Of a stretch of DNA of 64,000 bases, positions 3,271-60,872 are shown piece by piece. The DNA is taken from the IMG/VR virus record IMGVR_UViG_3300038450_000150. One strand, given 5' to 3'. A program made the translations under genes and the position numbers. Each line of letters begins with the position of its first letter. Position 1 is the stretch's first letter. Source of the stretch: a virus (Duplodnaviria; Heunggongvirae; Uroviricota; Caudoviricetes). A model generated the notes under the pieces. It worked only from the letters and a program-made list of their open reading frames with translations. It was not told the origin of the DNA and did not search any database.

Positions 3271-3534
3271 TCAGTCCTCATTGAGTTCTCGTGCAATCTT
3301 ATGGAGAGCCATATCGTAACCACAGTGGGAACAGTGAACATAAATCCACTGTCTCTCTTCCATAATATTTCCGTAACTGTCTAGAGTTCGAAAACCACCA
3401 TCATGGTCATACTCCCTTAAACCGCTTCCTCTTAATGCCTTTCCACAGAGGCAAGTTGGCTTCTTACTCTCTATCAGGTTGGCCAGATAGGTTAAGTCTA
3501 TCGGTTCTTCGAGTCTGTTCGTCATATTGGTCAA
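3271..3534 (-). CDS. Zn-binding small protein (87 aa)
   Basis: CLCGK...HCSHCGY cysteine pairs. TTTATAAA at 3555-3562 lies 20 nt upstream. Confidence 0.4.
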   Translation of the reverse strand: MTNMTNRLEEPIDLTYLANLIESKKPTCLCGKALRGSGLREYDHDGGFRTLDSYGNIMEERQWIYVHCSHCGYDMALHKIARELNED

Positions 3535-4313
3535 AGCTGATAGGTATGTGTGTGTTTATAAATGTTATGGACTACTGGTGTTTTAATTGAATAAAAAAGC
3601 ATATTTAGATATTCTACACCCTCTTCTGATATGAAGTTTGGGACGTTGTAATTAGCATTTGTGTATCTTCTCTCAGCCAATACTTTCTCATCTGTGATTG
3701 GATTGTAGCCTTTTTTTAAGTAATATTCAGATTTAAGGATTACACCGTTTTGTTGCCATAATGGTGCATAGTCAGTGTCAAAACCTCTCTCCTTACACAC
3801 TTCCTTCAATTGGTTTCCATTGAGTCCCTTGAGAGTACTGGCTGTTTTGGCTGGACTTAGATTATCTACTCTTAACACCATAGCTTCAGCCCAAGCATTT
3901 AGGAAGTTGCGTTTACACTCAGCTTGCCTCCAAATTAAGTATTTAGTAACATCTGCATCATCTACCATTGGGACTATTCTGCAATCAAAACTCGCCTTTG
4001 ACCCTAGCTCGGAGAAGGAAGAAGCAAAGTGACTAGGCATAAGAGAATCAAGTTTTTCTATTCTATCAAAGACAGTTGGCTCAAAAAAGATGAAACTAAT
4101 CTCATCTGAGAAGTAATATGCAAGTGACGGATTAAAAGCCTTGAAGAATTCTCTTGCTGCGTCTAGGAATCTTACAGAAAGCCTATCATCAAATGGCTTC
4201 CTCATTCCTTTTGTAAAGGTGTGAAATGCCCATCCGTCAAGCCTAGCTATAAATGGTGTGGTCACTCGAATATTGTTGAATATCTCCTTATCTTTGAAAT
4301 TCGTTTGCTCCAT
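3531..4313 (-). CDS. thg1: tRNA-His guanylyltransferase-like (Thg1-like 3'-5' nucleotidyltransferase)
   Basis: ARLDGWAFHTF, AYYFSDEISFIF, HFASSF and YLIWRQAECKRNFLN match the Thg1 signature blocks (RLDGRNFHRF / GQSDEYSFVF / SWRQADCHINNLYN). Confidence 0.8.
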   Translation of the reverse strand: MEQTNFKDKEIFNNIRVTTPFIARLDGWAFHTFTKGMRKPFDDRLSVRFLDAAREFFKAFNPSLAYYFSDEISFIFFEPTVFDRIEKLDSLMPSHFASSFSELGSKASFDCRIVPMVDDADVTKYLIWRQAECKRNFLNAWAEAMVLRVDNLSPAKTASTLKGLNGNQLKEVCKERGFDTDYAPLWQQNGVILKSEYYLKKGYNPITDEKVLAERRYTNANYNVPNFISEEGVEYLNMLFYSIKTPVVHNIYKHTHTYQL

Positions 4314-10335: not shown

Positions 10336-11088
10336 TTACTTCTTCCTAAAGATGTTTAGTACAAGATCAACAACACAGAACGCTATCGCTATTACCGAGA
10401 GCAATGTGCTCCATATAGGTGCAGAATCACCTTGTGCGCCTGTTGCTCCAGTAAGTCCTACTGGACCTTGAACTCCCTGAATGCCTTGGATGCCTTGTGC
10501 GCCTGTTAATCCAGTCGCTCCTGTTGCGCCTGTGTCACCCTTATCACCTTTGATACCTTGAATTCCCTGATCTCCTTTTTGTCCCTGTGAACCAACTGGA
10601 CCAACTGGGCCTTGTGGACCCCTTGCTCCAGTAGCACCAGTGGAACCAGTTGCACCAGTTTCACCAGTAGAACCTGTCGCACCCGTTGCTCCAGTGGAAC
10701 CAGTCGCTCCAGTATCTCCCTTGGGACCAGGCGTTAGTTGAATGTTTCCAATTTCAGTCTGGAGATTTGTAATCTGTGTTTGTAGGCTATCAAGCCTTGT
10801 TTGAATTACAGAATCACCATCTGTACACTTCTCGATATCCTCAACTTCAGATGTTAATGCAGCTAGTTGGGACTTCAACTGTAGGAGAAGTGTTTGGTCA
10901 CAGTTGTTTGTTAGTGCATTTATCTTAACATTCAGAGCGTTAATCTGATTCTGTAGATCAGTAATTTGCCCTGGAATGCCATTGTTGTTATTATTTCCAT
11001 CATCACACGCAAGAGCGTGTGGAACAACAAGAACCGACATTAAAAATAGGCATACTATGCCTATTAATCCTCTCTTTTTGATCATCAT
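10336..11088 (-). CDS. collagen-like repeat membrane protein (250 aa)
   Basis: Signal/TM N-terminus, heptad coiled coil, about 45 G-x-y triplets ([13 protein letters not shown]...[10 protein letters not shown]), C-terminal TM helix. Confidence 0.65.
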
Positions 11089-12770: not shown

Positions 12771-14681
12771 TTAGCCTAAATTAGTCCATTGCCTTGTATG
12801 GAACTCAACTTGTTTCATCTTATTCCAACTTGAGACAGGGACAAAGTATCCGACTATTCTGGTCATCCAGTCAAGTTCGTTTGAGCCACAAACTGGGCAA
12901 GTATTGTAGACACCCATCGAGTTGTGTCCTTTCTTACAGAGTGTGAATCCACGATTCAAGGCAAACTGCACGAGATCTGTGTTCTTGATTAGTCTGTCCT
13001 GGACTTTGAATCCATTGATCTCATCCATCGAGCCAAGGATATTGAGGTGCGCCATACTTCCACCAGTAGTTGTGTTCTGGAACTTGCCCTCAACCTCAAC
13101 TCTCTTACCCATAGGAATGTCATAACTTAGTGGGACAAACTGGCTGTTGTAGAACTGTTTTGTTGCTGTCTCAGGGAATTTGATTTTATCCTTTGCTGCT
13201 AGAAGTCCAGACGCACTTTCTGCTGGAACCTCTTCGATGTTGTACATTACGCCATCTTCGTGGGAGAACTGAACTGATAATTGCTTCATAAGGGATAGTA
13301 TTTTCAGACCTTGTGCCTGTCCTTCACCCTCTGTAATGGTTCCACCCATATACTCAATAGCATCTGCAAAGCCAACAAAGCCTATGGTGCTGAAGAAATT
13401 GGAATCAAGATTGAGTATTCCGTTCCTGAAGAATTCGTGGTACTTTACACGTCTTGCTCCTAGAATGTCTCTTCTGTGAACAAAGAGAAGCTGTCTAGCC
13501 TGACCAACACGATCAACTAGTAGTCTCTCGAACTCAGCCCAATTTCCCTTTGCCTCTAGTGCTATCCTTGGGAGATTGACCGTAACAACAGCGTGTGAAC
13601 CTAGAGTTAGGAAACTGCCAAAGGTGTTGTTGACCTTCATCTTCAACATATCCTCTATGTCGAGAGTTAGCTTGCAACACATAGATAATTTCTTCAAGTC
13701 TGTGTTCATATTTCTAAGAATGTTTAGGAAACAGAAGTCCTTGTTGAGTGTGAGGATCCTGTGATACTCTTCTGGATATTCCTTCTCCATTGAAGGATCA
13801 ATTACCAGAGTTGTTATCGGGAAACGATAAGGCAGATTCTGTAATTTCTTATCTGGACCAACCATACCCTTTGCAAGGAACTCTAGGAAGATCATCTGGT
13901 TCCTCATAATCTCGTCTATTAAATCTCCAATCTTGTAGTCTGAGTCTGGCCAGATATAATCTGCAAACATCGACCTCATAGTCTCTGGACTTAGGATACT
14001 GACGTTTGTGAATGGAGATTGACCTGAGAGGCGTTCCTTATCGGACACACCGTGAACTAGATTTTGCATATCGTTTAGTCTGGATTCATCTGGATAGTTG
14101 CCAACCATCTTTGTGAAGTAACTGTAGTTTACGAAGAAATCTGTGAGTGCTGTCGCTCCAGCAAAGCAATTTGCAGCAGCCTGGATTAGTCGAGCAGTTA
14201 GATTTGTGAAACTTGCTGGACGCTTTGGTGGTAGAGTTGGAACATCACTAAATTGAACTTGACCATAGAGTAAAGGAGTTGTTGAAAGCCCTATACAATA
14301 TGGGAGCTGGTAGAGAGTTGAGTTGTGGATGTAGAGTGCGCCATTGAATACATCACCGATTAACTCATCACCATTGTATTTCCTGCGGTTTGCATATCTC
14401 CTGTAGAGATAATAGCAACTAAGTTTTTCAATGGGATTGTTTACTTCGGTGATTTGATTCACAAAACTCTTCTTCTCTCCAGTATTGCCAAGATTGGCAT
14501 TGGGATTGATTGTAACAGCATCTACTGGTTGCGACCAGTAATCTCTCCTAAGTTTGAAAGGATTGATATTTCCCAAGCCATCCATTTTTATAAGGTCATA
14601 ATCAACATCTGCAAGATAGTCTGCAAATTCCTCATCAAAAGTTCCAAGTATATTTCTGAATTTCAGTTCATCACGATTCAT
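12771..14681 (-). CDS. nrdD: anaerobic ribonucleoside-triphosphate reductase (class III RNR)
   Basis: 636 aa. C-terminal Zn ribbon C...H...CPVCGS followed by the glycyl-radical motif RIVGYF. Confidence 0.85.
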   Translation of the reverse strand: MNRDELKFRNILGTFDEEFADYLADVDYDLIKMDGLGNINPFKLRRDYWSQPVDAVTINPNANLGNTGEKKSFVNQITEVNNPIEKLSCYYLYRRYANRRKYNGDELIGDVFNGALYIHNSTLYQLPYCIGLSTTPLLYGQVQFSDVPTLPPKRPASFTNLTARLIQAAANCFAGATALTDFFVNYSYFTKMVGNYPDESRLNDMQNLVHGVSDKERLSGQSPFTNVSILSPETMRSMFADYIWPDSDYKIGDLIDEIMRNQMIFLEFLAKGMVGPDKKLQNLPYRFPITTLVIDPSMEKEYPEEYHRILTLNKDFCFLNILRNMNTDLKKLSMCCKLTLDIEDMLKMKVNNTFGSFLTLGSHAVVTVNLPRIALEAKGNWAEFERLLVDRVGQARQLLFVHRRDILGARRVKYHEFFRNGILNLDSNFFSTIGFVGFADAIEYMGGTITEGEGQAQGLKILSLMKQLSVQFSHEDGVMYNIEEVPAESASGLLAAKDKIKFPETATKQFYNSQFVPLSYDIPMGKRVEVEGKFQNTTTGGSMAHLNILGSMDEINGFKVQDRLIKNTDLVQFALNRGFTLCKKGHNSMGVYNTCPVCGSNELDWMTRIVGYFVPVSSWNKMKQVEFHTRQWTNLG

Positions 14682-18839: not shown

Positions 18840-19181
18840 TTAGATTTCCTTCCAATCATTTGTGTATAATTTTGCACGATACTTACCAACTTTGAAACTT
18901 CCAGTGGAAATTGCTATTTGCAAAACAAACTGCAAGTCTCTATATATTTCCATCATTCTTGTTTCAACATCATCTGAGTAACCACCATTTTCATCTGGTT
19001 CTATTCCAAGTATTCTTCCTATATCACCAAACACATATGAGTTACCAAATGGCCGTTTTGGGTCGATTGATGGTGCTCCAAATTCTGTGTCTGTCCAGTC
19101 CACATATAGTTCCTTTAGAAGTTTGATATGATTTCTTTTGATTTCAAAATATTGATATTTATCGTCCTTAGTTCTTGGCAT
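18840..19181 (-). CDS. hypothetical protein (113 aa)
   Basis: ORF. Confidence 0.35.
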   Translation of the reverse strand: MPRTKDDKYQYFEIKRNHIKLLKELYVDWTDTEFGAPSIDPKRPFGNSYVFGDIGRILGIEPDENGGYSDDVETRMMEIYRDLQFVLQIAISTGSFKVGKYRAKLYTNDWKEI

Positions 19182-19747
19182 TATTTATCCCTCTTACCAT
19201 AATCCTTCTTACAGGGTGCTGGGACAACCTTTCCATCTGCTTGAAGCAGGACGTTTTCACATTTTCCACAGTTGTGATCACACTCTTCAAAGAAGTTGTG
19301 CGAAACCGAGATTGGGACATCTCTAATCATCATATCATCGTATCGTCCAGTTCTAATATATTTGAGTAAATGAACCTTGTCAACCTCATCTGGGATGCAA
19401 ATCTTTCTGCCTGGAAGAACTAGAACATTTGCCTCAACACGAATCTTTGGACAGGTTTGGCGGTTTCTTGAGAGAACTTCAGCATTGTAGATTATGTTTC
19501 TAATCATATTTGTATAGAGCCAGACGTTCTCTGTTATTGTGTAGCAGAGTTTGAGGATCCTGTAGATATCTGGGTGTGATAATGGCTCACCACCAGAGAT
19601 ATTGATTCTATCTATGTCCTTGTGAAGGAGAAGGAACTTCTCTATCTCTTCAAATGGAAGCGGTTTGCCCTCTGGTGTTGCAGAGGACGAGCAGACTTCA
19701 CAATCCTCTTCACAGAATTGTGTGATTTCTATTGTTACTTCAACCAA
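19181..19747 (-). CDS. radical-SAM enzyme (NrdG-like RNR activase or QueE-like)
   Basis: CEEDCEVC (C-x3-C-x2-C) plus ISGGEPL. 188 aa. nrdD lies 4.5 kb away on the same strand. Confidence 0.55.
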   Translation of the reverse strand: MVEVTIEITQFCEEDCEVCSSSATPEGKPLPFEEIEKFLLLHKDIDRINISGGEPLSHPDIYRILKLCYTITENVWLYTNMIRNIIYNAEVLSRNRQTCPKIRVEANVLVLPGRKICIPDEVDKVHLLKYIRTGRYDDMMIRDVPISVSHNFFEECDHNCGKCENVLLQADGKVVPAPCKKDYGKRDK

Positions 19748-31055: not shown

Positions 31056-32900
31056 TTAGACTGCTTTGGTAGCTGCCTCTTTCTTTCGAAGCATCTGAGC
31101 CAGCCAGACATTGAGTAGGTTGCCTTGGGCTTCTCCACCATTGCCACCTGAAACTAGGATATCAGGTGTGATAGTGATCTTGCCAGAGGCAATCTGCTCG
31201 AACACCTTTAGCATTGCAACGTTGTCCTGACCTAGGACACCCATCTGTGCAGCATATGCTTTAGCTGTACCTACACCTTCCTGTTCATTCTTGTAAGCTG
31301 TACCGTCTGCCTGAGCCTTAGTTGCATCACGAACACCAGCAGCTTCCATCCTTGCTGCATCTGCACGGTCTGCTGCAATATCGATTGACAGTTTAGCTGA
31401 GATAACGTCAGTCTGCTTGTCAGCCCTTGCCGTTTTCTCTGCTACAGCAATCCTCTGCTCCTGTGCAAGTGCTTCCTGCTGGTACTGTGCCTGTTGCTGG
31501 GCAGCTATTTCCTTCTTTGTCTGAGTTTCTAGTAGTGCCTTGTCAACATCAATGTAAGCAATTAGCAGCCCCTGAACCTCTGTGTGGTACTTCGAGAACT
31601 CTTCACGAGCCTTCTCAAGTGCCTGTTCCTGTAGTTCAGTTCGGCTGTGGACGAACTGCATTGCCTGTTTCTTGCCAGCTTCGTTACGGAAGGAGGAGTC
31701 GATCAGTGGGTGAGCAACCTGTTCAATCAGGTTCTGTACAGTACCGAACCTTGCAATCACGAAAGGTGCATTGGCTGGAGGTACACGGATGATGAGCCTG
31801 ACATCTACATCAAGCTGGAACCCATCCATTGAAGTTACACGAAGTTGGCTGAACTTGAAGAACTCTGTGATCTTCTGGCTCTGGGAAACGTCCTTTCCCT
31901 GAGCTCCAAGTACACGTGTCTCTGCTGGACCCTCAGTTGATGCCCAATCTATAGTGATAGCGGAAGTAGGTACTAACTCAGGCTTGTAGGCGATTTGGTT
32001 AAGGTTGTACTTTCCAGGTGTAACTGGCTCGGCCAGAATACCACGCTGGTTCTTGTCAGTGATTAGAAGAGACTCAACTGTCTCTGGAATTGGGGAATTG
32101 AGATCAGGTGTCTTGCTGATTTTTGGTGCTTCACCACTAGGCTGGACTTCCTTTCCAACACTGGAAATGATTACAGCAACGTAGCCTGGTGGGACAACAG
32201 CAACATCATAGAGAGTGACTTGGAATAGGTTAGTATTTATGTAGTAATCACCTGGCTGAAGTGTCTCAAGTTGTGGACCCCTGTAGCCACCAGCCTCAAT
32301 GAAGGCTTGGCTGTCTTGGAAGTGCTTGTGATCTGATGTGGGTGCTGGAGCAATTATGAAACCAGATGGCAGTGAATTGCCATCCATAGCAACAACTACA
32401 CCGACCCTCTCCTGTGGAACTTGTACTGCACCAACTGCTGTGACTTTGAATACAGCTAGGTTGATACGATAAACACCTGGGCGAAGTACACCAATCTGAG
32501 GACCCTTCTTTCCACCATTCTTGAGGAATGCCCCTGCATCTTGGTACGAATTACATTCAACCTCATCTGCAAGGATACGACCAGATGGAATGGATTGTCC
32601 GTCAATGGACTCAACTAGACCAATATTTCCCTGTGGAATCTCGGTCACTTCGACCTTCTTAATCTTCCAGATTATGGGGAAACGCCAGTAAAGTCCAGGC
32701 ATAAGGGTTTCAGCTTGAATACCGACCTCACCCTCAGTAGCAATGATTTTTCCCTGTGGTAATTTCTTGCCAAACATTTTCTTAACTAGGATACCGACCT
32801 CACCAGCTTTGATGAGAGCGAATCCTGGTAGCACGAAGAAAACTAAGCATATTAGTACGACAATGCCTAGAATCCCTAGTCCGATTAGATCTTCAAACAT
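31056..32900 (-). CDS. SPFH/flotillin-like (YqiK-type) membrane protein with internal repeats
   Basis: N-terminal TM. Duplicated about 90-aa segment (FQDSQAFIEAGGYRGPQLETLQPGDYYIN versus YQDAGAFLKNGGKKGPQIGVLRPGVYRIN). C-terminal Ala/Glu/Gln-rich coiled coil and ITITPDILVSGGNGG...LLNVWLAQML tail typical of the flotillin C-terminus. Confidence 0.65.
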   Translation of the reverse strand: MFEDLIGLGILGIVVLICLVFFVLPGFALIKAGEVGILVKKMFGKKLPQGKIIATEGEVGIQAETLMPGLYWRFPIIWKIKKVEVTEIPQGNIGLVESIDGQSIPSGRILADEVECNSYQDAGAFLKNGGKKGPQIGVLRPGVYRINLAVFKVTAVGAVQVPQERVGVVVAMDGNSLPSGFIIAPAPTSDHKHFQDSQAFIEAGGYRGPQLETLQPGDYYINTNLFQVTLYDVAVVPPGYVAVIISSVGKEVQPSGEAPKISKTPDLNSPIPETVESLLITDKNQRGILAEPVTPGKYNLNQIAYKPELVPTSAITIDWASTEGPAETRVLGAQGKDVSQSQKITEFFKFSQLRVTSMDGFQLDVDVRLIIRVPPANAPFVIARFGTVQNLIEQVAHPLIDSSFRNEAGKKQAMQFVHSRTELQEQALEKAREEFSKYHTEVQGLLIAYIDVDKALLETQTKKEIAAQQQAQYQQEALAQEQRIAVAEKTARADKQTDVISAKLSIDIAADRADAARMEAAGVRDATKAQADGTAYKNEQEGVGTAKAYAAQMGVLGQDNVAMLKVFEQIASGKITITPDILVSGGNGGEAQGNLLNVWLAQMLRKKEAATKAV

Positions 32901-32941: not shown

Positions 32942-32963
32942 TTTATAAATATTTGGAATTTGG
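32942..32963 (-). promoter_or_regulatory. BRE/TATA-like promoter motif upstream of the SPFH gene
   Basis: tttataaatatttggaatttgg. Confidence 0.5.
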
Positions 32964-33045
32964 TGGGGTTACAAGGAGTCGAACCCTGACCCTTGGTTTT
33001 CCCCTATTTCTGGGGACCAAGATGCTACCGCTACACCATAACCCC
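32961..33045 (-). tRNA. tRNA with an apparent 13-20 nt insertion in the anticodon region (intron-like), isotype undetermined
   Basis: Minus-strand sequence GGGGTTA...GGTTCGACTCC...TAACCCCACCA has acceptor and T-arm. The segment CTTGG-TCCCCAGAAATAGGGGAAAA-CCAAG is too long for a 7-nt anticodon loop. Confidence 0.5.
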
Positions 33046-34440: not shown

Positions 34441-34520
34441 TGGCGGGTTCGGAGGGATTTGAACCCCCGACAAGTGGATTAAAAGTCCACTGCGCTAAGA
34501 CCTGACTGCGCCACGAACCC
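34441..34520 (-). tRNA. tRNA-Lys (anticodon TTT), CCA encoded
   Basis: GGGTTCG...GTGGA-CTTTTAA-TCCAC...GGGGGTTCAAATCCCTC-CGAACCC-G-CCA. Own TATA at 34543. Confidence 0.75.
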
Positions 34521-34559
34521 AGCACTGAATAGTATGACTGAATTTATAAATATTGTGAA

Positions 34560-34637
34560 TGGTGGACTCGAAGGGATTTGAACCCCTGACCCTTGGCTTA
34601 GAAGGCCAATGCTCTATCCAAGCTGTGCTACGAGTCC
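34560..34637 (-). tRNA. tRNA-Arg (anticodon TCT), CCA encoded
   Basis: GGACTCG...GGCCTTCTAAGCC...GGGGTTCAAATCCC...CGAGTCC-A-CCA. Confidence 0.75.
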
Positions 34638-34639
34638 AA

Positions 34640-34719
34640 TGGTGAGTCTGAGGGGATTTGAACCCCTGAATGGAGGATTAAGGGTCCTCTGCGCTAGACC
34701 TTGCTACGCCACAGACTCA
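34640..34719 (-). tRNA. tRNA-Lys (anticodon CTT), CCA encoded
   Basis: GAGTCTG...GAGGACCCTTAATCCTC...GGGGTTCAAATCCCC...CAGACTC-A-CCA. TATA at 34739, about 20 nt upstream. Confidence 0.75.
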
Positions 34720-36407: not shown

Positions 36408-36596
36408 TTATGGACAGATAATACTTCCTCTAATAAAATTATCATACTTCCTATTTTCCTTGAATTTCTCAATCTTTCTTTCACGTTCTGTAGGTGGAAG
36501 AACCTCACAAAAATTCGGGTATTGATCCAAATGCCAGTGCCAGACCCATTCCTTATCCGACATTTGTTGACCACAATGCAAACACCTTACCATCAT
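36408..36596 (-). CDS. Zn-binding mini protein (62 aa)
   Basis: CLHCGQQ...HWH. Confidence 0.3.
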   Translation of the reverse strand: MMVRCLHCGQQMSDKEWVWHWHLDQYPNFCEVLPPTERERKIEKFKENRKYDNFIRGSIICP

Positions 36597-37015
36597 TTAG
36601 AATTGTTCACCTCACTGAGTTCTTCCATCAATGTTACTTTTTTGAGCTGGGTTGGTGGTGTTTGGACATCAATCGTTCCAAGTGTTGAGTCTACATTCCA
36701 AACCATAAACTTGAAACCACCAACTGTGAAATTTTGGGGTAAGTTGTTGTTATAAAATGTTATAATATATCCACCAAGGTGCATTGAATGTGTGAGAGGT
36801 GTAGCGGAAAATAAACCACCACCATTGTCTGTAAAGCCATTATATGTGTATGGACCAAGTTGATCGCCTGGAATGAGGGTCACTATGTTCTTTGGTTTCA
36901 ATGGAACTGGTGTTGTGAATACAGATGAAATAATACTAATTATTGCTATAGACATAAATAATCCAAAAAATAGTTTTGGTATCATATCGAACATATCTAA
37001 GTCAGACACTTTCAT
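36593..37015 (-). CDS. secreted/membrane beta-rich protein (140 aa)
   Basis: N-terminal hydrophobic signal/TM. Downstream of the collagen-like gene in the same operon. Confidence 0.4.
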   Translation of the reverse strand: MKVSDLDMFDMIPKLFFGLFMSIAIISIISSVFTTPVPLKPKNIVTLIPGDQLGPYTYNGFTDNGGGLFSATPLTHSMHLGGYIITFYNNNLPQNFTVGGFKFMVWNVDSTLGTIDVQTPPTQLKKVTLMEELSEVNNSK

Positions 37016-37021
37016 TTCACC

Positions 37022-37867
37022 TTATTCATCATCGTCTTGAGGATTAGAACGTGGTCTACCTCTCGGTCTTGTTGGTGGTAATGGTTGTGGCTTACTACGA
37101 ACAAATGCACCTATTGAAAATGCCATTGACATAACACAAAACCCAATAATTGTATAGAATTCCCATTCTGGTGCTATTTCTCCTTGGGGACCCTGAATGC
37201 CTTGAGGACCTGTTGCGCCTGTGTCACCCTTATCACCCTTTGCACCAGTTGCACCAGTTAATCCCCTATCACCCTGTATTCCTTGTATTCCTTGTAATCC
37301 CTGTATGCCTTGTGTTCCGTTAAATCCTCTTAATCCTTGAGGACCAACTGGACCAATAAGTTTTGCTTTTATAGTTGAGTTCAATTTATCAAACCAGTCT
37401 GGTGGTGGAATGAAATTTGTGATTGTAAATGATTTTGCAATTGTTACTTTACTTCCATCCATTCCTTCAACAATAATTTTTATTGTGTGCAGACCAAGAT
37501 TAGAGTAGGGTGTTTGATTAGGTACTAAAATAAATGTGTCCCAAGTTACTAAAATATTTGCTCCAGCAGTACTGTATAATGGTTCAGATTTAATAATCTC
37601 AGAAAAATCATCATAATATACATATAAATATGAAGAAACTGGACAAGTTGTGTGATCAGCTTCTGGATTAACTTCAATATGTATATTTATTTTTGTATTA
37701 ACATCACCAGATTCTGGTGATATTATTACAGATAAATTATTTATTGGGACATCTGCTTTTATTAATTTAGGTGTAGAGATTACAAAACATATTAAAAAAA
37801 TCATTAAGATAAATTTGTGTTTGAACATTTTATAATTTCTCACCACAGTGTTTGCAAAACTGAGCAT
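37022..37867 (-). CDS. collagen-like membrane protein with C-terminal AT-hook-like tail
   Basis: Signal peptide, globular domain, G-x-y repeats (GPVGPQGLRGFNGTQGIQGLQG...GDTGATGPQGIQGPQG), TM helix, then tail RSKPQPLPPTRPRGRPRSNPQDDDE. Confidence 0.6.
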   Translation of the reverse strand: MLSFANTVVRNYKMFKHKFILMIFLICFVISTPKLIKADVPINNLSVIISPESGDVNTKINIHIEVNPEADHTTCPVSSYLYVYYDDFSEIIKSEPLYSTAGANILVTWDTFILVPNQTPYSNLGLHTIKIIVEGMDGSKVTIAKSFTITNFIPPPDWFDKLNSTIKAKLIGPVGPQGLRGFNGTQGIQGLQGIQGIQGDRGLTGATGAKGDKGDTGATGPQGIQGPQGEIAPEWEFYTIIGFCVMSMAFSIGAFVRSKPQPLPPTRPRGRPRSNPQDDDE

Positions 37868-38120
37868 CTTCAGAATTAAGTGTTTTGCATTTTTGGCATT
37901 TGATTTTTATACGTATTTTTTGGTCAGAATTAACTTCTTGTTTCATAATAATTTGCTGGTGTTGACTGGATGTGATTAAACCAGCAAAAAGTATTATTCC
38001 ACCCAAAAACATTGCTGGAACACCTATAAGTGCTCCTATAATTGTAAGTGAAATTAGCCATCCTAAAAAACCAATTATAAGCCCAATGATTATTAATCCA
38101 AGACGCAAGTTGATTACCAT
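37830..38120 (-). CDS. polytopic membrane protein with C-terminal Zn ribbon (about 96 aa)
   Basis: Start moved to the internal Met (MVINL...) because the longer ORF runs into tRNA-Ile. TATA at 38140-38147 lies 20 nt upstream. C-terminal CQKCK...CKHCG. Confidence 0.4.
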   Translation of the reverse strand: MVINLRLGLIIIGLIIGFLGWLISLTIIGALIGVPAMFLGGIILFAGLITSSQHQQIIMKQEVNSDQKIRIKIKCQKCKTLNSEDAQFCKHCGEKL

Positions 38121-38158
38121 AAAATAACAAATATGAAAGTTTATAAATATTATGAAAA

Positions 38159-38235
38159 TGGTGGCGAAGAGCAGACTTGAACTGCTGATGCCCTGATTAT
38201 CAGTCAGGTGGACTACCAAGCTGTCCTACTTCGCC
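38159..38235 (-). tRNA. tRNA-Ile (anticodon GAT), CCA encoded
   Basis: GGCGAAG...CCTGA-CTGATAA-TCAGG...CAGCAGTTCAAGTCTGCTG? T-arm...CTTCGCC-A-CCA. Confidence 0.7.
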
Positions 38236-38240
38236 AAGAA

Positions 38241-38321
38241 TGGTAGAGAGGATGGGATTCGAACCCACATAAAGGCAAGGATTATGAGTCCTCCGAGATA
38301 ACCAGGTTCCTCTACCTCTCT
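38241..38321 (-). tRNA. tRNA with anticodon CAT (Met, or Ile2 if lysidine/agmatidine-modified); 81 nt, 8-nt variable loop
   Basis: AGAGAGG...GAGGA-CTCATAA-TCCTT...GTGGGTTCGAATCCCAT-CCTCTCT-A-CCA. Only 5 nt from tRNA-Ile. TATA at 38343-38350, 21 nt upstream. Confidence 0.6.
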
Positions 38322-38342: not shown

Positions 38343-38350
38343 TTTATAAA
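38343..38350 (-). promoter_or_regulatory. TATA box of the tRNA(CAT)-tRNA-Ile transcription unit
   Basis: gtgtgtttataaagattt. TATA is 21 nt upstream of the mature 5' end. Confidence 0.5.
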
Positions 38351-38353
38351 GAT

Positions 38354-39811
38354 TTATTCTCTGACGATGTAAAGGTTGTTTAATGACCTTGTTAGAGCTA
38401 CAAACTTGCAGTTATCTTCCTCTTTCAACTGCTGGGGATTGCCCTGCTTTACAGCATATGGGTGTGGCATAAGATCATAGCGGAGTATGTAGACGTTCTC
38501 AGACTCAAGTCCCTTAGCCCTATGAACACTGCTGAAAACTATGCCCTCAATATTGTCACGGAAAATGAATTTCACTTTTGATGTAAGATCGGTTATGGTT
38601 TTGCTCTCATCGGCTATAGCAAAGATTGTGTCAACCCTGTCACTGAGGGTGAGTATTGATGCTTCCTTTTTCTGGATCTTCAACTTCTCGGTCTGCTTCT
38701 GCTGGTACTCTTTCAGACCGATTAGGAAAGTGCTGAGATCGGTAGCACCACACATCTTTACGACACGGTTGATTAGGTTCTCAAGCTGATCGCCTATGCT
38801 CTTGCCAACAATTATGACCTTCTTGCCGTTTCGAATAAGTTCGAAGGCTGGTTCTACGAGAGGGGCATTTGTTCGGCAGAGAACCATATCCTTCGGCTGG
38901 ACTTTTTTCATAAATGTGGGATAGTCTATTTCCTCAACTTTTCCCTGCTTGGCATTTGGACCACATTCGTGTGTGATGTTTGGGAAGGTCTTGTTTACAA
39001 AGGCAACGACAGACTTTGGGTTTCTGTAACTGATGCTGAGTGGAAATTCGACAGCATCAAGCATATTTCCCAAGTAATCCATAGCATTGATTCCAGCTCC
39101 ACGGAAACCGTATATGGCTTGGTTTCTGTCACCGATTACTATTGTGCATCCGTTGGGTTTCCTGATTTTGAGGATCATTTGAACCTGAGTCTCGTTCAAG
39201 TCCTGTGCCTCATCAACAAGGACATAATCGTATTTTCTCATTGGGATATCGAGAACGACAGGAAGCCAGATCATATCATCATAATCGATTGTTTGTGTGT
39301 CTTTTTTAGATCGTTGTATAACATAATTAACGGCCTTGAACACTGTTTTTTCATTACCATTTAATTTAATGTTATAGAAATCACACATTTCAATCATAGA
39401 ATCTTCATCTTCTGAATCTGTTAATGTGTTTTTCACATATTGAACAACTTTAGCAATTGTCTGCCAGAGCATTTTATTGACAACAGTGTCCTCTAGGATT
39501 GAGTATGTTTTTTGATTGTCCATAATGAAATTACCATATACATTACGAAGTTCACGATTGCCAAGAGAATGAAGTGTTTTTGCTTCTCCACCAGGCATAT
39601 TTGCTAGTTTTTCTTTTGCCTCAAGTTGATTCTTTTTATTAAAAACAAGATATATCCAGCTTTTATTTTTTGGTATATAATTTTTAATAAACTCTTGAAT
39701 TGTTCGAGTTTTACCAGAGCCAGCAGTTGCACTCACTATGATGTTCTTATCTCCCTTTCTGCCAGCCTCAAAGATTGCCTTCTGGTATGAGGACGGGACG
39801 AATGTTGACAT
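38354..39811 (-). CDS. UvrD/PcrA/Rep-family SF1 DNA helicase
   Basis: Walker A ATAGSGKTR, motif II VLVDEAQDLNETQ, motif III VIGDRNQAIYGFRGA. Confidence 0.75.
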   Translation of the reverse strand: MSTFVPSSYQKAIFEAGRKGDKNIIVSATAGSGKTRTIQEFIKNYIPKNKSWIYLVFNKKNQLEAKEKLANMPGGEAKTLHSLGNRELRNVYGNFIMDNQKTYSILEDTVVNKMLWQTIAKVVQYVKNTLTDSEDEDSMIEMCDFYNIKLNGNEKTVFKAVNYVIQRSKKDTQTIDYDDMIWLPVVLDIPMRKYDYVLVDEAQDLNETQVQMILKIRKPNGCTIVIGDRNQAIYGFRGAGINAMDYLGNMLDAVEFPLSISYRNPKSVVAFVNKTFPNITHECGPNAKQGKVEEIDYPTFMKKVQPKDMVLCRTNAPLVEPAFELIRNGKKVIIVGKSIGDQLENLINRVVKMCGATDLSTFLIGLKEYQQKQTEKLKIQKKEASILTLSDRVDTIFAIADESKTITDLTSKVKFIFRDNIEGIVFSSVHRAKGLESENVYILRYDLMPHPYAVKQGNPQQLKEEDNCKFVALTRSLNNLYIVRE

Positions 39812-40313: not shown

Positions 40314-40389
40314 TGGAGCCCCAGGCAGGACTCGGACCTGCGACCATCAACTTACAAGGTTGACGCACTACCAACTATGCTACAGGGGC
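40314..40389 (-). tRNA. tRNA-Thr (anticodon TGT), CCA encoded
   Basis: GCCCCTG...TCAAC-CTTGTAA-GTTGA...GGTCCGAGTCC...CTGGGGC-T-CCA. One T-T mismatch in the acceptor stem. TATA variant at 40416. Confidence 0.65.
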
Positions 40390-40425
40390 AACAGTGGTAA
40401 AAGGTATGTGTATGGTTATAAATAT

Positions 40426-40929
40426 TTAGATAAAAACAGGAATTTTGTTTATTTTCATTAAGTCTTTAATTGTTATTATTTTTACTTCATTTTCTATATA
40501 ATTTCTAATATTTTCCCATCCCCAGATACATTGTTCATTTTTAACATCTATAAATGGTTCATTATGTTCTTGTGCATTATCCATTGAAGATATTGGATAT
40601 TGTAATAATTTTAAGAGTGGTATCATCACTGCGTTTGTACCACCTTTATTTATTTGAATATAATATGAATATGGTTTTGCATATTTTAATTTACGTTCTA
40701 AAAAATGAACAGAATTGAATGAAAAATAATCGTTCCAATATTTCTCGTGATTTTCTACTTCTATACCACCGACTAATGTTAGAGACTTCATAATTTGTAT
40801 ATCAATATCATATTTCTTTTCATTTCTTTTAATCCAAAACACATTTGATTTAATATTTTTAAAAACACAATTTATTGCAGGATCATTAAATTTTTTATTT
40901 GCTTTCTCGTCATATTCCTTATGACCCAA
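40426..40929 (-). CDS. hypothetical protein (167 aa) with very low-GC codon usage, possible nuclease
   Basis: Lys/Asn/Ile-rich; composition distinct from neighbours. Weak D...E-x-K-like spacing (DIDIQIMK...IEVENHEK). Confidence 0.35.
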   Translation of the reverse strand: MGHKEYDEKANKKFNDPAINCVFKNIKSNVFWIKRNEKKYDIDIQIMKSLTLVGGIEVENHEKYWNDYFSFNSVHFLERKLKYAKPYSYYIQINKGGTNAVMIPLLKLLQYPISSMDNAQEHNEPFIDVKNEQCIWGWENIRNYIENEVKIITIKDLMKINKIPVFI

Positions 40930-51063: not shown

Positions 51064-51145
51064 AACAGCGTCAATACGTAACCCCCACTATAAACTTTAT
51101 AAATATTATCGGCTAGACGGATTTCTTGTTTTTCATAATTTAAAA

Positions 51146-56660: not shown

Positions 56661-56905
56661 TTTCTAGTCCTCTTCTCGGTATCTATCTCCTTTCTTGTCT
56701 TTATGGCTAATTCGACTGCACACTCTTCACAATATAGTTTTCTCAAACCGTGGCTAACTTTGCTTATTGCATAGTCACCCTGTTTGAATGTGACCATATT
56801 TGTGCAATTTGGGTTGGCGCATTTTAACACTTCTTCACCACCCTTCAGACCTATTCTCTTTGCCGTGATATAAATTACTACAGTGTTCTTACCCATCAGT
56901 ATCAT
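56636..56905 (-). CDS. Zn-ribbon protein (89 aa)
   Basis: CANPNC...CEEC. Confidence 0.3.
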   Translation of the reverse strand: MILMGKNTVVIYITAKRIGLKGGEEVLKCANPNCTNMVTFKQGDYAISKVSHGLRKLYCEECAVELAIKTRKEIDTEKRTRKCLSTVSR

Positions 56906-57158
56906 CTCCGATTTGGACTTGGTTTGTTTCCAGTGGAGTCCAATTGAACACTGGTGCTGTTTGCATATTAAAGCCTATGCCTTTTTCGTAAATATACCAT
57001 AGCGGAATGTCAGCCCACACCGCCTTCTCCGAAACCTTGGCCACCCACTCATCTACATCTTCCTTGCTTAAAAGGAAGTAGGTATAGGGATGATGCTTGA
57101 TTCTGACTTCAACAATCATACAGAGATTTGCTATCCTACCACGAGCAAATTCTTTCAA
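56889..57158 (-). CDS. hypothetical protein (89 aa)
   Basis: ORF. Confidence 0.3.
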   Translation of the reverse strand: MKEFARGRIANLCMIVEVRIKHHPYTYFLLSKEDVDEWVAKVSEKAVWADIPLWYIYEKGIGFNMQTAPVFNWTPLETNQVQIGDDTDG

Positions 57159-57200
57159 TCCAAACCATCCAGCCTTGTTGAGATGTGTATTTCCTACTTT

Positions 57201-57473
57201 TCAAATCTTCATACCTTTTACATTTTTATCTACACTGAAAGGTAGCATTGTTTTAACTTCTATAACCATCCTTCCAAGAGAAGTTACCAGATATATATCT
57301 GGGTGTCCACCCTGACCAGTTGTGGTTTGAATGGAATCTTCACCAAAGTAATGAGCCAGAATCATTTTGACATTCTCCTCACCTTGGTTTCCAATTTCCT
57401 CTCGCTCATCCCTTCCGTACATACCATTCATCTCTTGTAAACATTGTAAAACTGTAACCGAAGTCACAATCAT
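57201..57473 (-). CDS. small PD-(D/E)XK nuclease-like protein (90 aa)
   Basis: GGHPDIYLV...MVIEVKT fits the PD...E-x-K arrangement of Hjc/VRR-NUC-like nucleases. Confidence 0.35.
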   Translation of the reverse strand: MIVTSVTVLQCLQEMNGMYGRDEREEIGNQGEENVKMILAHYFGEDSIQTTTGQGGHPDIYLVTSLGRMVIEVKTMLPFSVDKNVKGMKI

Positions 57474-57747
57474 AGTATTGAATCATATAGTCGTGTTCTT
57501 TGGCGTATTGATTGATCCAGCTCCTAAGAGGAACAAAATGTACAGGTTTGACTCCTTGGTAGTATTCAAACCATTTCTTGAATCCTTCGCTACATTTCTT
57601 CTTAGTGTTTAGGTAGTTCTTACCAATAAGAAAAGTAAAATATTCACCTATATGATGTGTTGATAATCTCCTATCTGACCTATTAATTAAATCCAGCCAT
57701 TTGTTGAGATTATTATGATCTGGAACATAGAGTTGCAACATTATCAC
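57406..57747 (-). CDS. hypothetical protein (113 aa)
   Basis: ORF overlapping the 57201-57473 frame at its 3' end. Confidence 0.3.
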   Translation of the reverse strand: MIMLQLYVPDHNNLNKWLDLINRSDRRLSTHHIGEYFTFLIGKNYLNTKKKCSEGFKKWFEYYQGVKPVHFVPLRSWINQYAKEHDYMIQYYDCDFGYSFTMFTRDEWYVRKG

Positions 57748-57923
57748 CTATGATATACACGGATTTCTGCAAGGCTGTAGACATCGGCTTGAAAGCCTCT
57801 GAGCAAGAGCCTGTTGGGGAAACTGATGTAAAGCCAACAGGGAGACCAGGGGAAGAACTAACCCTACTCTACAGAAGAGTATGCCCATTTCGGATGTCCC
57901 TTGCCTCTTACAGTCCGTAATTA

Positions 57924-58475
57924 TCACACCTGTTGTTGTGTCTCTTTTGGCTTGTTTTTACTACCTTTTGGTCTGCCACCGCCTCTCTTTTTCTGAACTG
58001 GAGATACTACTTGTTCTTGTTCCTGTGGCTGTTCTTGTTCCTGTTCCTCTGGTTGTGTCTGTTTCTCTGGTGGTGTTTGATGAGTACTCACGAATATTGG
58101 CTTTTTTCCTTTTCTCTTCAAGGCACTTGGAATCTTGAGCTTTTCTTGTGGTTTTTGCATTGATTGAAACTGTGGTTTCTTGTGTCTGTCTGGCTTACTT
58201 AACCTAACATATGCGTCCCAATATGTCCAAGTTGAGACAATTGTAATTAGCACAAATAAGATGAATGTTCCAATAACTGTAGCATCTCTATTTTGATAAA
58301 TGAAATCAAGACCAGATATTGGTTCCATCTTATCTAAGGCAAAGTAAACCATAACAAAGAATGTCCAACTAAAGAACACTGCAAATAGGTTTATCAGGAA
58401 TAGTATCCCTTGGCTACCAACTAGGCTTCTAAGTGCCTTAGAAAACCAAGTTGTGAACTTTTCTCTTTGCATCAT
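57924..58475 (-). CDS. polytopic membrane protein with basic C-terminal tail containing an AT-hook-like GRPKG motif
   Basis: Three N-terminal TM helices. Tail ...PEEQEQEQPQEQEQVVSPVQKKRGGGRPKGSKNKPK. Confidence 0.45.
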   Translation of the reverse strand: MMQREKFTTWFSKALRSLVGSQGILFLINLFAVFFSWTFFVMVYFALDKMEPISGLDFIYQNRDATVIGTFILFVLITIVSTWTYWDAYVRLSKPDRHKKPQFQSMQKPQEKLKIPSALKRKGKKPIFVSTHQTPPEKQTQPEEQEQEQPQEQEQVVSPVQKKRGGGRPKGSKNKPKETQQQV

Positions 58476-58518: not shown

Positions 58519-58538
58519 TTTATAAATATTGTGGTTGG
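58519..58538 (-). promoter_or_regulatory. BRE/TATA-like promoter motif
   Basis: tttataaatattgtggttgg upstream of 57924-58475. Confidence 0.5.
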
Positions 58539-58595: not shown

Positions 58596-60872
58596 ATGTG
58601 TGTAACGAGCGCATTGTCTAGTAAATATCTCCACTTACTAGTTATACTTATAATTTTAATACCGATGATACCAAAGGCAAACGCAAGTTTATCCAAACCA
58701 TATATTGATGGTATGACAATTGAAAATATTAATGGAGAACCATTGAATCTATATGGGGTGAATATACGTGACAACTACCAAGAAAAGGACATTAAATGGC
58801 TATCAGATAATGGGTATAATGCAATAAGAGTCACAATTCTATGGCAAACAATCGAGCCAACAGAAGGTGTACTGGATTGGAGTGGGTTAGACAACACAGT
58901 ACAATGGGCTGAAAAATATCACATTTATGTACAGTTAGATTTTCACCAGTGGCAATATAGTAATTATTTTCATTGGGACAGTATGGGAACAGGTTGTGGA
59001 TTTCCAGCTTGGATTGTTAGTGCTGGAGGATACACAAACGATGAGGCTGGACAGCAAGCCTTCTCAGATGATTTTTTCCTCAAACGTGGTTATGGTGCAG
59101 TAGTCTGGGATAAATATGAAAACTTCATATTGCAAATTGTCACCAGATATAAAGATTATCAAAATGTGTGGGCATATGAACCAATTAATGAACCAATGGT
59201 TGGTTCACCACATATTGATGATGCAAGAGTTGCCTGTAATGCTAGATATACAGAATTGATACAGGCAATCAGAGCAATCGACCCTGAAACGATAATTGTG
59301 TTACATTATATTGATTCTGGTTTCAATCAAAAACAGGATTTTCCAAACATTGCCTGGACAAAGAGTGCATATAGTGAATATGGTGTTGGAACAACAAAAT
59401 CTCAGATTGATAAATATCTAACAAACCGTGAAGCAGAGTTCAATATTGTAATGGATGTTCCTTGGATAATTAGTGAAACTGGGTCGATGCCAGCTATGAA
59501 AGATTCGGCTGAGTATTTCCTAACAACATTATTGACTGACTACAAATCAATGTTAAACAATGGTCAATCTGTTTGGTATATCTGGGATTATGGATATGGT
59601 ATAACTGGTGGTTATGTAAGCCCAAGAAATGCAGACGGCAGTGATAGTTGGATACAGCCAATACTAGCTAATATTATTAATTCAATTACTCCACCAAAAA
59701 CAATAACACAAGTAGACACATCATCTTGGACAGGATTTGCAATGTCTGTCGAGAATCGTGAAAACTTGGATATGTGGACTTCTGCTTTAGACAAAGGCTC
59801 AAAATGGGGATTTACTGTAATTCGTGTACCATTTCTATTTCCAATAGACTATGCTAATATGGATCAGATACTTGCCCTTATTGACCAGCACGGTGCAAAG
59901 GCAATTTTAGATTTCCATTGTTTGGTTCAATATCCAGCAGCAAATAAGATTGGCACTGTTGGATTCATATCAGATTGGGTGGAAGTAGTCAACCATTATA
60001 AGAATGACACTAGAGTTCTTGGCTGGGAAATTGCCAATGAACCTGATCCAACACAATGGGATACATCAATAGTTACTTCTTATGATCATATCAAAGCATT
60101 AACAGATGTTGTTGATGCTATCAGAGCAATCGATCCAAGTAGAGTGATCATTTGGCCACCATCTTCTTTTTGGGGAGATACTAACATCCCACAAGGACTT
60201 ATACGGGATAATATTGTTCTTTCAACACATCCATATAGTTACGGTGATAAGAGTACTTGGGCAGAATTAAAAGTAATAGCAGACTACAGAATATCACAAA
60301 TTGCAAAATATGAAAACCAATTTAGTGGTGTTTGGGTTGGTGAAATTGAATGCCATCCAGGTGGAGCAACTAATCCAGAATTGGAAAAACAATATGTTGT
60401 CTATATGTTGAGTTGGTCACTCAGTAATGGACACGGATTTAATTATTGGAAATATGGAAATACATATGATGATGGTGGACAAAATCCAGATGAAATCATT
60501 AGTTTAGCATATGCAGATTCTGGAATATCATTACCCGTCACAACAACTGCCATATCAACAGTTTCTATGATAACAACGACTGTAGAAGAAACATATACAA
60601 AAGAGCCAATTGTTACTTCCAAAATATCACAAAGAAATAATTTGAATCAGAATAATCAAAATAATGCCCCTGTAGATTCTCCACCTGTAGATCCACCATT
60701 AGATACTAGTATTGGTGCTATGGGACAGATTATAGAATTTGTGATTATTGCATTTGGAATATCATTTTTGATAGCAATAGTCAATGGTGGAACAATAGAA
60801 GGAAGAAGTTTGATTGGAATGGTAATTGGACTTACAATAGTTATGTTTATCTTAGTTTTGATAAATAAATAA
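58596..60872 (+). CDS. secreted, C-terminally membrane-anchored protein with two tandem GH5-like (cellulase-family) domains
   Basis: Signal peptide. YEPINEP and WEIANEP (GH5 NEP acid/base motif, twice). Pro/Thr-rich linker PVDSPPVDPPLD. C-terminal TM helices. Confidence 0.65.
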   Translation: MCVTSALSSKYLHLLVILIILIPMIPKANASLSKPYIDGMTIENINGEPLNLYGVNIRDNYQEKDIKWLSDNGYNAIRVTILWQTIEPTEGVLDWSGLDNTVQWAEKYHIYVQLDFHQWQYSNYFHWDSMGTGCGFPAWIVSAGGYTNDEAGQQAFSDDFFLKRGYGAVVWDKYENFILQIVTRYKDYQNVWAYEPINEPMVGSPHIDDARVACNARYTELIQAIRAIDPETIIVLHYIDSGFNQKQDFPNIAWTKSAYSEYGVGTTKSQIDKYLTNREAEFNIVMDVPWIISETGSMPAMKDSAEYFLTTLLTDYKSMLNNGQSVWYIWDYGYGITGGYVSPRNADGSDSWIQPILANIINSITPPKTITQVDTSSWTGFAMSVENRENLDMWTSALDKGSKWGFTVIRVPFLFPIDYANMDQILALIDQHGAKAILDFHCLVQYPAANKIGTVGFISDWVEVVNHYKNDTRVLGWEIANEPDPTQWDTSIVTSYDHIKALTDVVDAIRAIDPSRVIIWPPSSFWGDTNIPQGLIRDNIVLSTHPYSYGDKSTWAELKVIADYRISQIAKYENQFSGVWVGEIECHPGGATNPELEKQYVVYMLSWSLSNGHGFNYWKYGNTYDDGGQNPDEIISLAYADSGISLPVTTTAISTVSMITTTVEETYTKEPIVTSKISQRNNLNQNNQNNAPVDSPPVDPPLDTSIGAMGQIIEFVIIAFGISFLIAIVNGGTIEGRSLIGMVIGLTIVMFILVLINK

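Follow-up and report, generated by a model that had tools for sequence, protein, structure and literature searches.

Most of the documented cases in which replicating viral genomes are attached to membranes come from a few bacteriophages and from eukaryotic viruses, and it is a bacteriophage that offers the closest parallel to the small membrane protein described here. The p16.7 protein of phi29 is an integral membrane protein that binds both DNA and terminal protein and organises replication at the membrane (PMC4974454). Like p16.7 (and p1), the protein that we call ORF B is small, virus-encoded, membrane-anchored and encoded together with replication genes, and we infer that its cytoplasmic part shares with that of p16.7 the capacity to bind nucleic acid non-specifically. 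The resemblance is functional and architectural only, for ORF B matched no Pfam or PHROG family and has no sequence or family relationship to its phage counterpart. Whereas p16.7 joins one N-terminal transmembrane helix to a folded, dimeric DNA-binding domain, ORF B joins a predicted membrane hairpin to a disordered tail carrying an AT-hook, and the bacterial host and protein-primed replication of phi29 are equally unlike the setting of ORF B.

AT-hooks, for their part, are familiar as tethers in another domain of life. Nuclear-pore precursors are held on chromatin through the AT-hooks of ELYS (PMC3069009), and EBNA1, according to work cited in PMC1950889, uses AT-hooks to tether EBV episomes on chromosomes. 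ELYS/Mel28 and the EBNA1/LANA-type tethers have in common with the role proposed for ORF B that AT-hooks fasten large assemblies to DNA in bulk rather than regulate specific sequences, but they are eukaryotic, are not themselves transmembrane and possess multiple or accessory DNA-binding regions. At the level of the motif, the hooks of HMGA1, of plant AHL proteins and of the Pfam AT_hook family resemble both proteins considered below: the G-R-P core with basic flanks recurs in ORF A and in ORF B, the type-I extension in ORF B, and the core RPRGRPR(K) of HMGA hooks 2 and 3 is reproduced by ORF A and then followed by an acidic end. HMGA1 and AHL proteins are, however, soluble nuclear proteins with several hooks, whereas ORF A and ORF B each carry a single hook and are integral membrane proteins encoded by an archaeal virus-like element. 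The literature searched describes no AT-hook protein with transmembrane segments from archaea or their viruses, and we rate the motif itself as a known AT-hook and its architectural and phylogenetic setting as new.

Both proteins are encoded within the stretch of DNA analysed here (64 kb, hereafter the window), which is part of a ~197-kb genome (JAFMOA010002524.1) that we take to belong to a large archaeal virus, or else to another mobile element, as yet uncultured. Genes in the window are dense, short and mainly on the minus strand, and are accompanied by seven tRNA genes. The genes identified include those for a family B DNA polymerase, TFB/TFIIB, and XPD-like and UvrD-like helicases; further genes encode two RFC-like AAA+ proteins, a class III ribonucleotide reductase, a Thg1-like enzyme, a type-4 uracil-DNA glycosylase (UDG), an SPFH protein, a membrane-anchored GH5 glycosidase and a GT2 glycosyltransferase. 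Archaeal NCBIfam models match TFB, the RFC small subunit, UDG and a Hef/XPF nuclease, and the polymerase is only 24% identical to its nearest entries in the phage collection searched, which come from tailed haloarchaeal viruses. No structural gene, capsid included, was recognised when ~40 ORFs of the window were scanned against Pfam and PHROG, and the 10 kb past its left end hold small unknown ORFs only, again with no structural genes recognised; a look-up with a protein from the right end gave no match. The suggestion of the first-pass annotation that ORF A and ORF B are parts of a virion envelope or internal membrane draws no support from this gene context.

ORF B (57924-58475, minus strand) is a membrane protein of 183 aa, built as a hairpin followed by a long disordered tail, predicted to be cytoplasmic, that ends in an AT-hook; its C-terminus reads ...KKRGGGRPKGSKNKPKETQQQV. 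It had been credited with three transmembrane helices; Kyte-Doolittle hydropathy and an AlphaFold model instead give two, preceded by an amphipathic helix at residues ~4-18 (AF2 helix 3-17 in 182-aa numbering). The first transmembrane helix occupies residues ~22-47 (58335-58412, minus strand; hydropathy maximum 2.28; AF2 helix 20-48 in 182-aa numbering) and the second residues ~64-86 (58218-58286, minus strand, by hydropathy; AF2 helix 62-92 in the same numbering), the latter adjoined in alignments by a conserved juxtamembrane block, WTYWDAYVRLSKPDR. Beyond it, residues ~99-183 (57927-58181, minus strand) form the disordered tail, with AF2 pLDDT below 50 for residues 102-182. Its linker is variable and rich in E, Q, P and K, with one conserved island, KKPxxVS(T/M), ahead of the AT-hook block KKRGGGRPKGSKNKPK at residues 162-177 (57945-57992, minus strand), which is of type I, an RGRP core followed by GSKNK. 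Topology, here as for ORF A, was derived from hydropathy and charge rules. Net charge is +3 in the N-terminal flank, -2 in the loop and +4, with six K/R, in the flank after the second helix; because the flanks are net positive and the loop net negative, the tail is predicted to lie on the cytoplasmic, DNA-containing side, and the positive-inside rule predicts an N-in/C-in hairpin with the hook held in the cytoplasm on a tether of ~80 residues.

Relatives of ORF B (P0002, P0003, P0144, P0145, P0149 and L012) were recovered by a word-indexed search, which gave two, an exhaustive profile search, which gave three more, and a metagenome scan, which gave one more and added three short contigs; none was found in IMG/VR or among GTDB species representatives. 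The resulting family is small and previously undescribed. Its seven lineages, all metagenomic and reaching down to 28% identity, encode proteins of 170-185 aa, each predicted to comprise an amphipathic N-terminal helix, a two-helix hairpin and a disordered tail of ~95 residues, with both ends cytoplasmic. The name ‘TonB’ that JGI gives to P0002 has no support from Pfam and was set aside as an artefact of low complexity. The canonical hook GRPKGSKN ends the tails of five of the seven lineages, namely that of the window (the block given above), P0003 (KKRGRPKGSKNTVK), P0144 (TNRGRPKGSKNKPK), L012 (SGHGRPKGSKNKMK) and P0149 (KNKGGRPKGSKNKEK), and is replaced in the other two by GRKPGSKNK or GPKPGSHRTKK, in a variant tail (P0002/L005, KRKRGGRKPGSKNKPK) and a degenerate one (P0145, KKRGPKPGSHRTKK). 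As the exact G-R-P core is lost in these two, strict minor-groove geometry may not be essential.

Conservation is spread unevenly along the proteins of the family. Mean pairwise identity is 0.49 in the first transmembrane helix and 0.47 in the second with its juxtamembrane segment, falls to 0.26 in the first linker, recovers to 0.43 in the KKPxxVSTH island, drops to 0.14 in the second linker, and rises again to 0.48 in the AT-hook block before collapsing to 0.11 over the last residues. The hook is therefore a conserved island, as well preserved as the membrane helices, at the end of a tail that otherwise drifts freely, and on the strength of this alignment we regard it as being under selection. 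All further matches of the ORF B profile were to soluble proteins with 2-9 copies of KRGRGRPKGSKNKPK, and were made through the hook block only; since the block by itself draws in multi-AT-hook proteins, it is indistinguishable from genuine AT-hooks. We conclude that the tail of ORF B is a genuine, selected one that probably faces the cytoplasm and binds nucleic acid.

Whether the motif deserves its name in the two proteins of the window may also be judged by its statistics and by membership of the family. The AT-hook-like motifs reported by the first-pass annotation are both borne out by the sequence: a six-frame search of the 64 kb finds six G-R-P tripeptides, only two of them within real genes, at residues 270-272 of ORF A and 167-169 of ORF B. 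In a proteome of ~92 genes and 17.2k aa, two plain GRP compare with ~2.2 expected, a count that is unremarkable by itself, and shuffling reproduces a plain GRP in 6% of ORF A tails and 3% of ORF B tails. For the stricter [RK]GRP[RK], 0.035 occurrences are expected in the same proteome, and it appears in 0.24% of ORF A-tail shuffles. Against the Pfam AT_hook model (PF02178, gathering cut-off 17.4 bits), the ORF A tail alone scores 18.5 bits, and a full-length ORF A scan at E<=0.01 does not list it. The ORF B tail gives no match, that of its ortholog P0003 scores 13.7 bits, below the cut-off, and no tail of the ORF B family attains it; the model misses ORF B because of a GGG insertion, which places two extra glycines before the core. 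An AT-hook has basic residues within ~1-5 positions on both sides of its core (PMC4615771), as do ORF A (R-P-R-GRP-R) and ORF B (K-K-R-G-G-GRP-K-G-S-K-N-K-P-K). The type-I hook, as defined for plant AHL proteins, has an RGRP core followed by G-S-K-N-K (PMC12430185). Four other lineages share with ORF B the corresponding extension, GRPKGSKN(K), which is not found in ORF A, where RSNPQ follows the core instead. Among related loci totalling ~170 kb, the only long ORFs to combine a hydrophobic segment with basic-flanked GRP-type motifs are orthologs of ORF B. The RGRP-x-GSKNK form of ORF B is also that of hook 2 of HMGA1.

ORF A (37022-37867, minus strand) is a protein of 281 aa, predicted to be exposed at the surface, with the layout of a type-I membrane glycoprotein: signal peptide, Ig-like beta-sandwich, collagen stalk, transmembrane anchor and 25-aa tail. 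Its true start is probably M14 at 37828, where public gene calls begin (268 aa). The collagen-like character and membrane anchor ascribed to it at first pass are both upheld. The repeats at residues 172-230 (37178-37354, minus strand) match PF01391 with 39.1 bits against a cut-off of 27.2 (E=6e-10), and the anchor, at residues ~234-256 (37100-37168, minus strand), is evident from Kyte-Doolittle hydropathy and an AF2 helix at 221-244 (268-aa numbering). The ectodomain carries four N-x-S/T sequons, and its N-terminal fold is Ig-like in an AF2 model and by Foldseek matches to Ig-like domains. As in viral and bacterial collagen-like surface and fibre proteins, the stalk, of ~20 G-X-Y triplets, stands between head and anchor; the likeness to phage tail fibres covers the collagen repeats only, and ORF A and ~19 relatives differ from collagen-like proteins at large in being C-terminally anchored, type-I proteins with an N-terminal Ig-like domain. 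After the hydrophobic segment the C-terminus reads ...FVRSKPQPLPPTRPRGRPRSNPQDDDE, and the tail RSKPQPLPPTRPRGRPRSNPQDDDE (37025-37099, minus strand), with its AT-hook-like core RPRGRPR at 37049-37069, is predicted to be cytoplasmic because the protein has a type-I layout with one transmembrane helix and a basic tail. Hydropathy and charge thus place the tails of both proteins on the cytoplasmic side, where the DNA is, as the first-pass annotation needed them to be. A second collagen-like, transmembrane-anchored protein, without a hook, is encoded at 10336-11088.

Conservation tells a different story for ORF A than for ORF B. A full-length search was swamped by collagen repeats (5607 matches), so an alignment of the N-terminal domain was used as query, and gave a family of ~20 clusters at 25-36% identity; beyond identical or near-identical copies, the protein search found no relatives above 36%. 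A signal peptide, Ig-like beta-sandwich, WFDD-type connector, collagen stalk and one transmembrane helix are common to the family, whose loci are virus- or MGE-like, with integrases, methyltransferases and glycosyltransferases. The 18 members aligned are alike in all but the tail. In place of the Pro/Arg-rich 25 residues, which occur only in identical or one-substitution copies of ORF A, the family has short basic stubs such as YRKVRE, FSRRK, WRRTD, IPKKKIVLEKKPNKS and LRSNRNMKKIILSLDESNP, and G-R-P is found in none of the tails of the ~19 other clusters. The hook-like tail is not a family property, and is either a recent, lineage-specific feature, perhaps one newly acquired for a function, or the chance product of a tail rich in R and P. 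The first-pass annotation had named tails that fail to persist in homologs as grounds for giving up its proposal, and for ORF A that is what is found. Its observation that two independent proteins share such a tail holds as a statement about sequence, but signs of selection are confined to ORF B; only that hook being conserved, the notion of two independent tethers rests on one case. The first-pass interpretation is accordingly supported in part, strongly as regards the conserved, predicted cytoplasmic hook of ORF B and weakly as regards the one-off tail of ORF A, and tethering of membrane to genome is a plausible mechanism.

A 12-nt all-A/T motif, TTTATAAATATT (AATATTTATAAA on the coding strand), occurs in 37 copies in the window with at most one mismatch, against 1.4 expected. 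Copies precede ORF starts by 20-45 nt and the 5' ends of tRNAs by 22-28 nt, as an archaeal TATA box is expected to do. One copy of this archaeal TATA-type motif lies 44 nt upstream of the ORF B ATG (58519-58530, minus strand), and on this sequence evidence ORF B has a predicted TATA-type promoter of its own. ORF A has no promoter box of its own, and is probably co-transcribed with an upstream ORF encoding a transmembrane segment plus zinc ribbon and with a downstream small membrane protein. ORF B adjoins the replication module: from it, in order, come a structured RNA, a gene for 111-115 aa, a PD-(D/E)xK-like gene, UDG, a DUF3987 primase-helicase-like gene and RFC-like genes, an arrangement kept in a related element of 105 kb, ERZ4200889 NODE_244, and, as far as contigs reach, in other lineages. 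In the window the PD-(D/E)xK-like gene is broken by a single in-frame TGA (57201-57203); stop-codon recoding was rejected as an explanation, this being the sole such case and the element having no suppressor tRNA.

The RNA that opens this series is a candidate of ~185 nt at 57740-57925 (minus strand), directly 3' of the ORF B stop. DNA alignment shows the region to be conserved above the level of the flanking genes, with non-triplet indels, and RNAalifold folds it into seven helices of 46 pairs. In this fold 94.8% of cells are paired, and compensatory changes affect 10 pairs, where slid controls give 0-3. The non-triplet indels in homologs, together with the covariation of base pairs, led us to reject the idea that the region encodes protein. 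Its G+C is 0.45-0.50 against a background of ~0.37. A covariance model finds one match per related element, always directly 3' of ORF B, and no Rfam family matched. The region is a good candidate for a novel structured RNA.

Taken together, we put at about one half the probability that the ORF B family, as its sequences suggest, pairs a membrane hairpin with a conserved hook that tethers AT-rich DNA for replication or partition, the tail of ORF A being lineage-specific or due to chance. A single AT-hook on its own, as known from HMGA peptides, is a weak binder. To function, ORF B would accordingly need to populate the membrane in many copies, each with a flexible, low-affinity hook, and such an array fits a tether better than it fits a sequence-specific regulator. 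Together the hooks would keep double-stranded, AT-rich DNA against the membrane on its cytoplasmic side, with targets offered by an element of 36-43% G+C that is rich in all-A/T promoter boxes, and replication or partition of the genome so held would thereby be organised, in functional terms much as by p16.7 in phi29. Given the neighbourhood of replication genes, the phage precedent and the fit of a many-copy array, we infer that a DNA-to-membrane tether for replication or partition is the most likely role of ORF B.

Other readings of the same tails would need to account for this pattern of conservation. The most sceptical of them, that neither tail binds nucleic acid and that both are basic, low-complexity stop-transfer, positive-inside or linker segments in which G-R-P arose by chance, draws on the unremarkable number of GRP tripeptides in the proteome, on their reappearance in shuffled tails, on the sufficiency of short K/R stubs in relatives of ORF A and on the failure of ORF B to reach the Pfam cut-off. 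Applied to both proteins it is unlikely, for the 16-residue block of ORF B is kept down to 28% overall identity when the surrounding linker is not, matches the extended RGRP-x-GSKNK consensus and lies ~80 residues away from the membrane, too far for a stop-transfer signal. Absence of a nucleic-acid role is accordingly unlikely for the ORF B tail; for ORF A, a chance motif with no such role is quite plausible, at roughly even odds. If both tails are instead functional, they might face the interior of a membrane-containing virion, bind the packaged genome and so link the membrane to a nucleoid or core. Their predicted position opposite the ectodomain side would suit this, as would the glycosyltransferases in the virus- or MGE-like contexts of the ORF A family and the several membrane proteins, together with an SPFH protein, that the element encodes. 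We nevertheless consider it decidedly improbable, because the ORF A tail is conserved in no homolog, ORF B sits in a replication rather than a structural module, the scans recognised neither capsid nor other structural genes in the window or the adjacent 10 kb on its left, and the closest relatives of the polymerase in the phage collection, at 24% identity, belong to tailed viruses without membranes.

The ligand of ORF B could also be RNA, possibly the structured RNA downstream, so that an RNA or RNP would be localised at the membrane. Some AT-hooks and extended AT-hooks do bind RNA, the extended type more tightly than DNA, and the motif would suit an RNA ligand equally well (PMC4615771); moreover, the ~185-nt RNA with its covarying pairs lies directly 3' of ORF B in all lineages. 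That adjacency is the sole link between the two, however, and the RNA may just as well act as a 3' UTR, as an element for termination or processing, or as a gene in its own right. The hook of ORF B is of the canonical, close-flanked kind and not the extended, RNA-preferring one. We consider this reading very unlikely. A hook that is merely accessory to some other membrane effector seems to us just as remote a prospect. ORF B might in that event mediate superinfection exclusion by capturing incoming DNA, or act as a regulator at the all-A/T promoter boxes, whose 37 copies would be ideal AT-hook sites, and the conserved WTYWDAYVRL juxtamembrane block and KKPxxVSTH island do suggest further interactions; but the protein resembles no known exclusion or regulatory family, and the argument is purely inferential.

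The replication or partition tether can also be extended into a bolder proposal, in which the proteins of the ORF B family tether the genomes of archaeal viruses to the membrane through DNA (possibly at the 37 or more promoter boxes) or through the adjacent RNA, forming a membrane-bound compartment for replication or assembly in an archaeal cell, with the ORF A tail as a second, recently recruited copy on a surface or envelope protein. In this full form it is rather unlikely; if true, archaea and their viruses would gain their first described membrane tether built on an AT-hook. Should the ORF B tail have no nucleic-acid binding, on the other hand, the finding would shrink to an ordinary low-complexity tail. 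The organisation of genome replication and packaging inside the hosts of archaeal viruses is largely unknown, and the ORF B family, with its membrane hairpin and eukaryote-style type-I AT-hook, is a simple candidate for a means of membrane attachment. The covarying RNA and the very regular promoter motif provide further handles on an uncultured element, and ORF B itself extends the AT-hook, usually seen as a motif of nuclear chromatin, to the mobile elements of archaea.

Directly 3' of ORF B (57924-58475, minus strand), which encodes a hairpin membrane protein with an AT-hook at the end of its disordered tail, lies a conserved GC-rich element of ~185 nt (57740-57925, minus strand) that occupies the same position in every related lineage, being present in the window and in the related loci L001, L005-L008 and L012-L014. 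Its predicted fold comprises seven helices and 46 pairs, with paired cells at 94.8%, and compensatory changes were found at 10 pairs, compared to 0-3 in slid controls. A protein-coding reading of the interval was ruled out because its indels are non-triplet. Rfam gave no match, and the element is a candidate for a new kind of structured RNA.

On the other side of ORF B, a divergently transcribed gene (58596-60872, plus strand) encodes a 758-aa protein that carries two domains of the GH5 (cellulase) family together with a signal peptide and, at its C-terminus, TM segments: an element-encoded, membrane-anchored glycosidase, whose gene likewise adjoins ORF B in L001. Nearby, a PD-(D/E)xK nuclease-like gene (56889-57473, minus strand) is a single ORF of 176-177 aa in relatives (L005 11074-11607; L014 1242-1772); in the window copy, one in-frame TGA (57201-57203) splits the ORF. 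This is the sole such case within the window, no suppressor tRNA was found there, and the TGA is probably a nonsense mutation or the mark of a pseudogene.

ORF A (37022-37867, minus strand), the gene of the collagen-stalked surface protein, is flanked on the same strand by two small membrane protein genes, with which it probably shares one transcription unit. In the upstream product (37830-38219), a zinc ribbon (PF13248) at the C-terminus comes after a TM region, and the N-terminus as annotated runs into tRNA-Ile; the downstream product (36593-37015; 140 aa) has an N-terminal TM segment. In a second collagen-like protein (10336-11088, minus strand), a signal peptide and a coiled-coil region accompany the collagen repeats (PF01391, E=4e-17), and the C-terminal TM anchor is followed by a short ...NIFRKK tail that carries no AT-hook.

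A very uniform archaeal TATA-type promoter, the 12-nt motif TTTATAAATATT (coding strand: AATATTTATAAA), occurs at 37 sites in the window against 1.4 expected (for example 58519-58530, 40415-40426, 38343-38354 and 51096-51107). Its distance upstream is 20-45 nt for ORF starts and 22-28 nt for tRNA 5' ends. The element also encodes its own TFB and seven tRNA genes on the minus strand (Trp, Lys x2, Arg, Ile, Met and Thr; 32961-33045, 34441-34718, 38159-38321 and 40314-40389), several of which have their own promoter box ~22-28 nt upstream. Further minus-strand auxiliary genes encode a Thg1-like tRNA-His guanylyltransferase (3531-4313), a class III anaerobic ribonucleotide reductase (12771-14681) with a radical-SAM activase-like ORF (19181-19747), and a 614-aa SPFH/Band-7 membrane protein (31056-32900). 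For a virus-like element of archaea, this auxiliary set is unusual.
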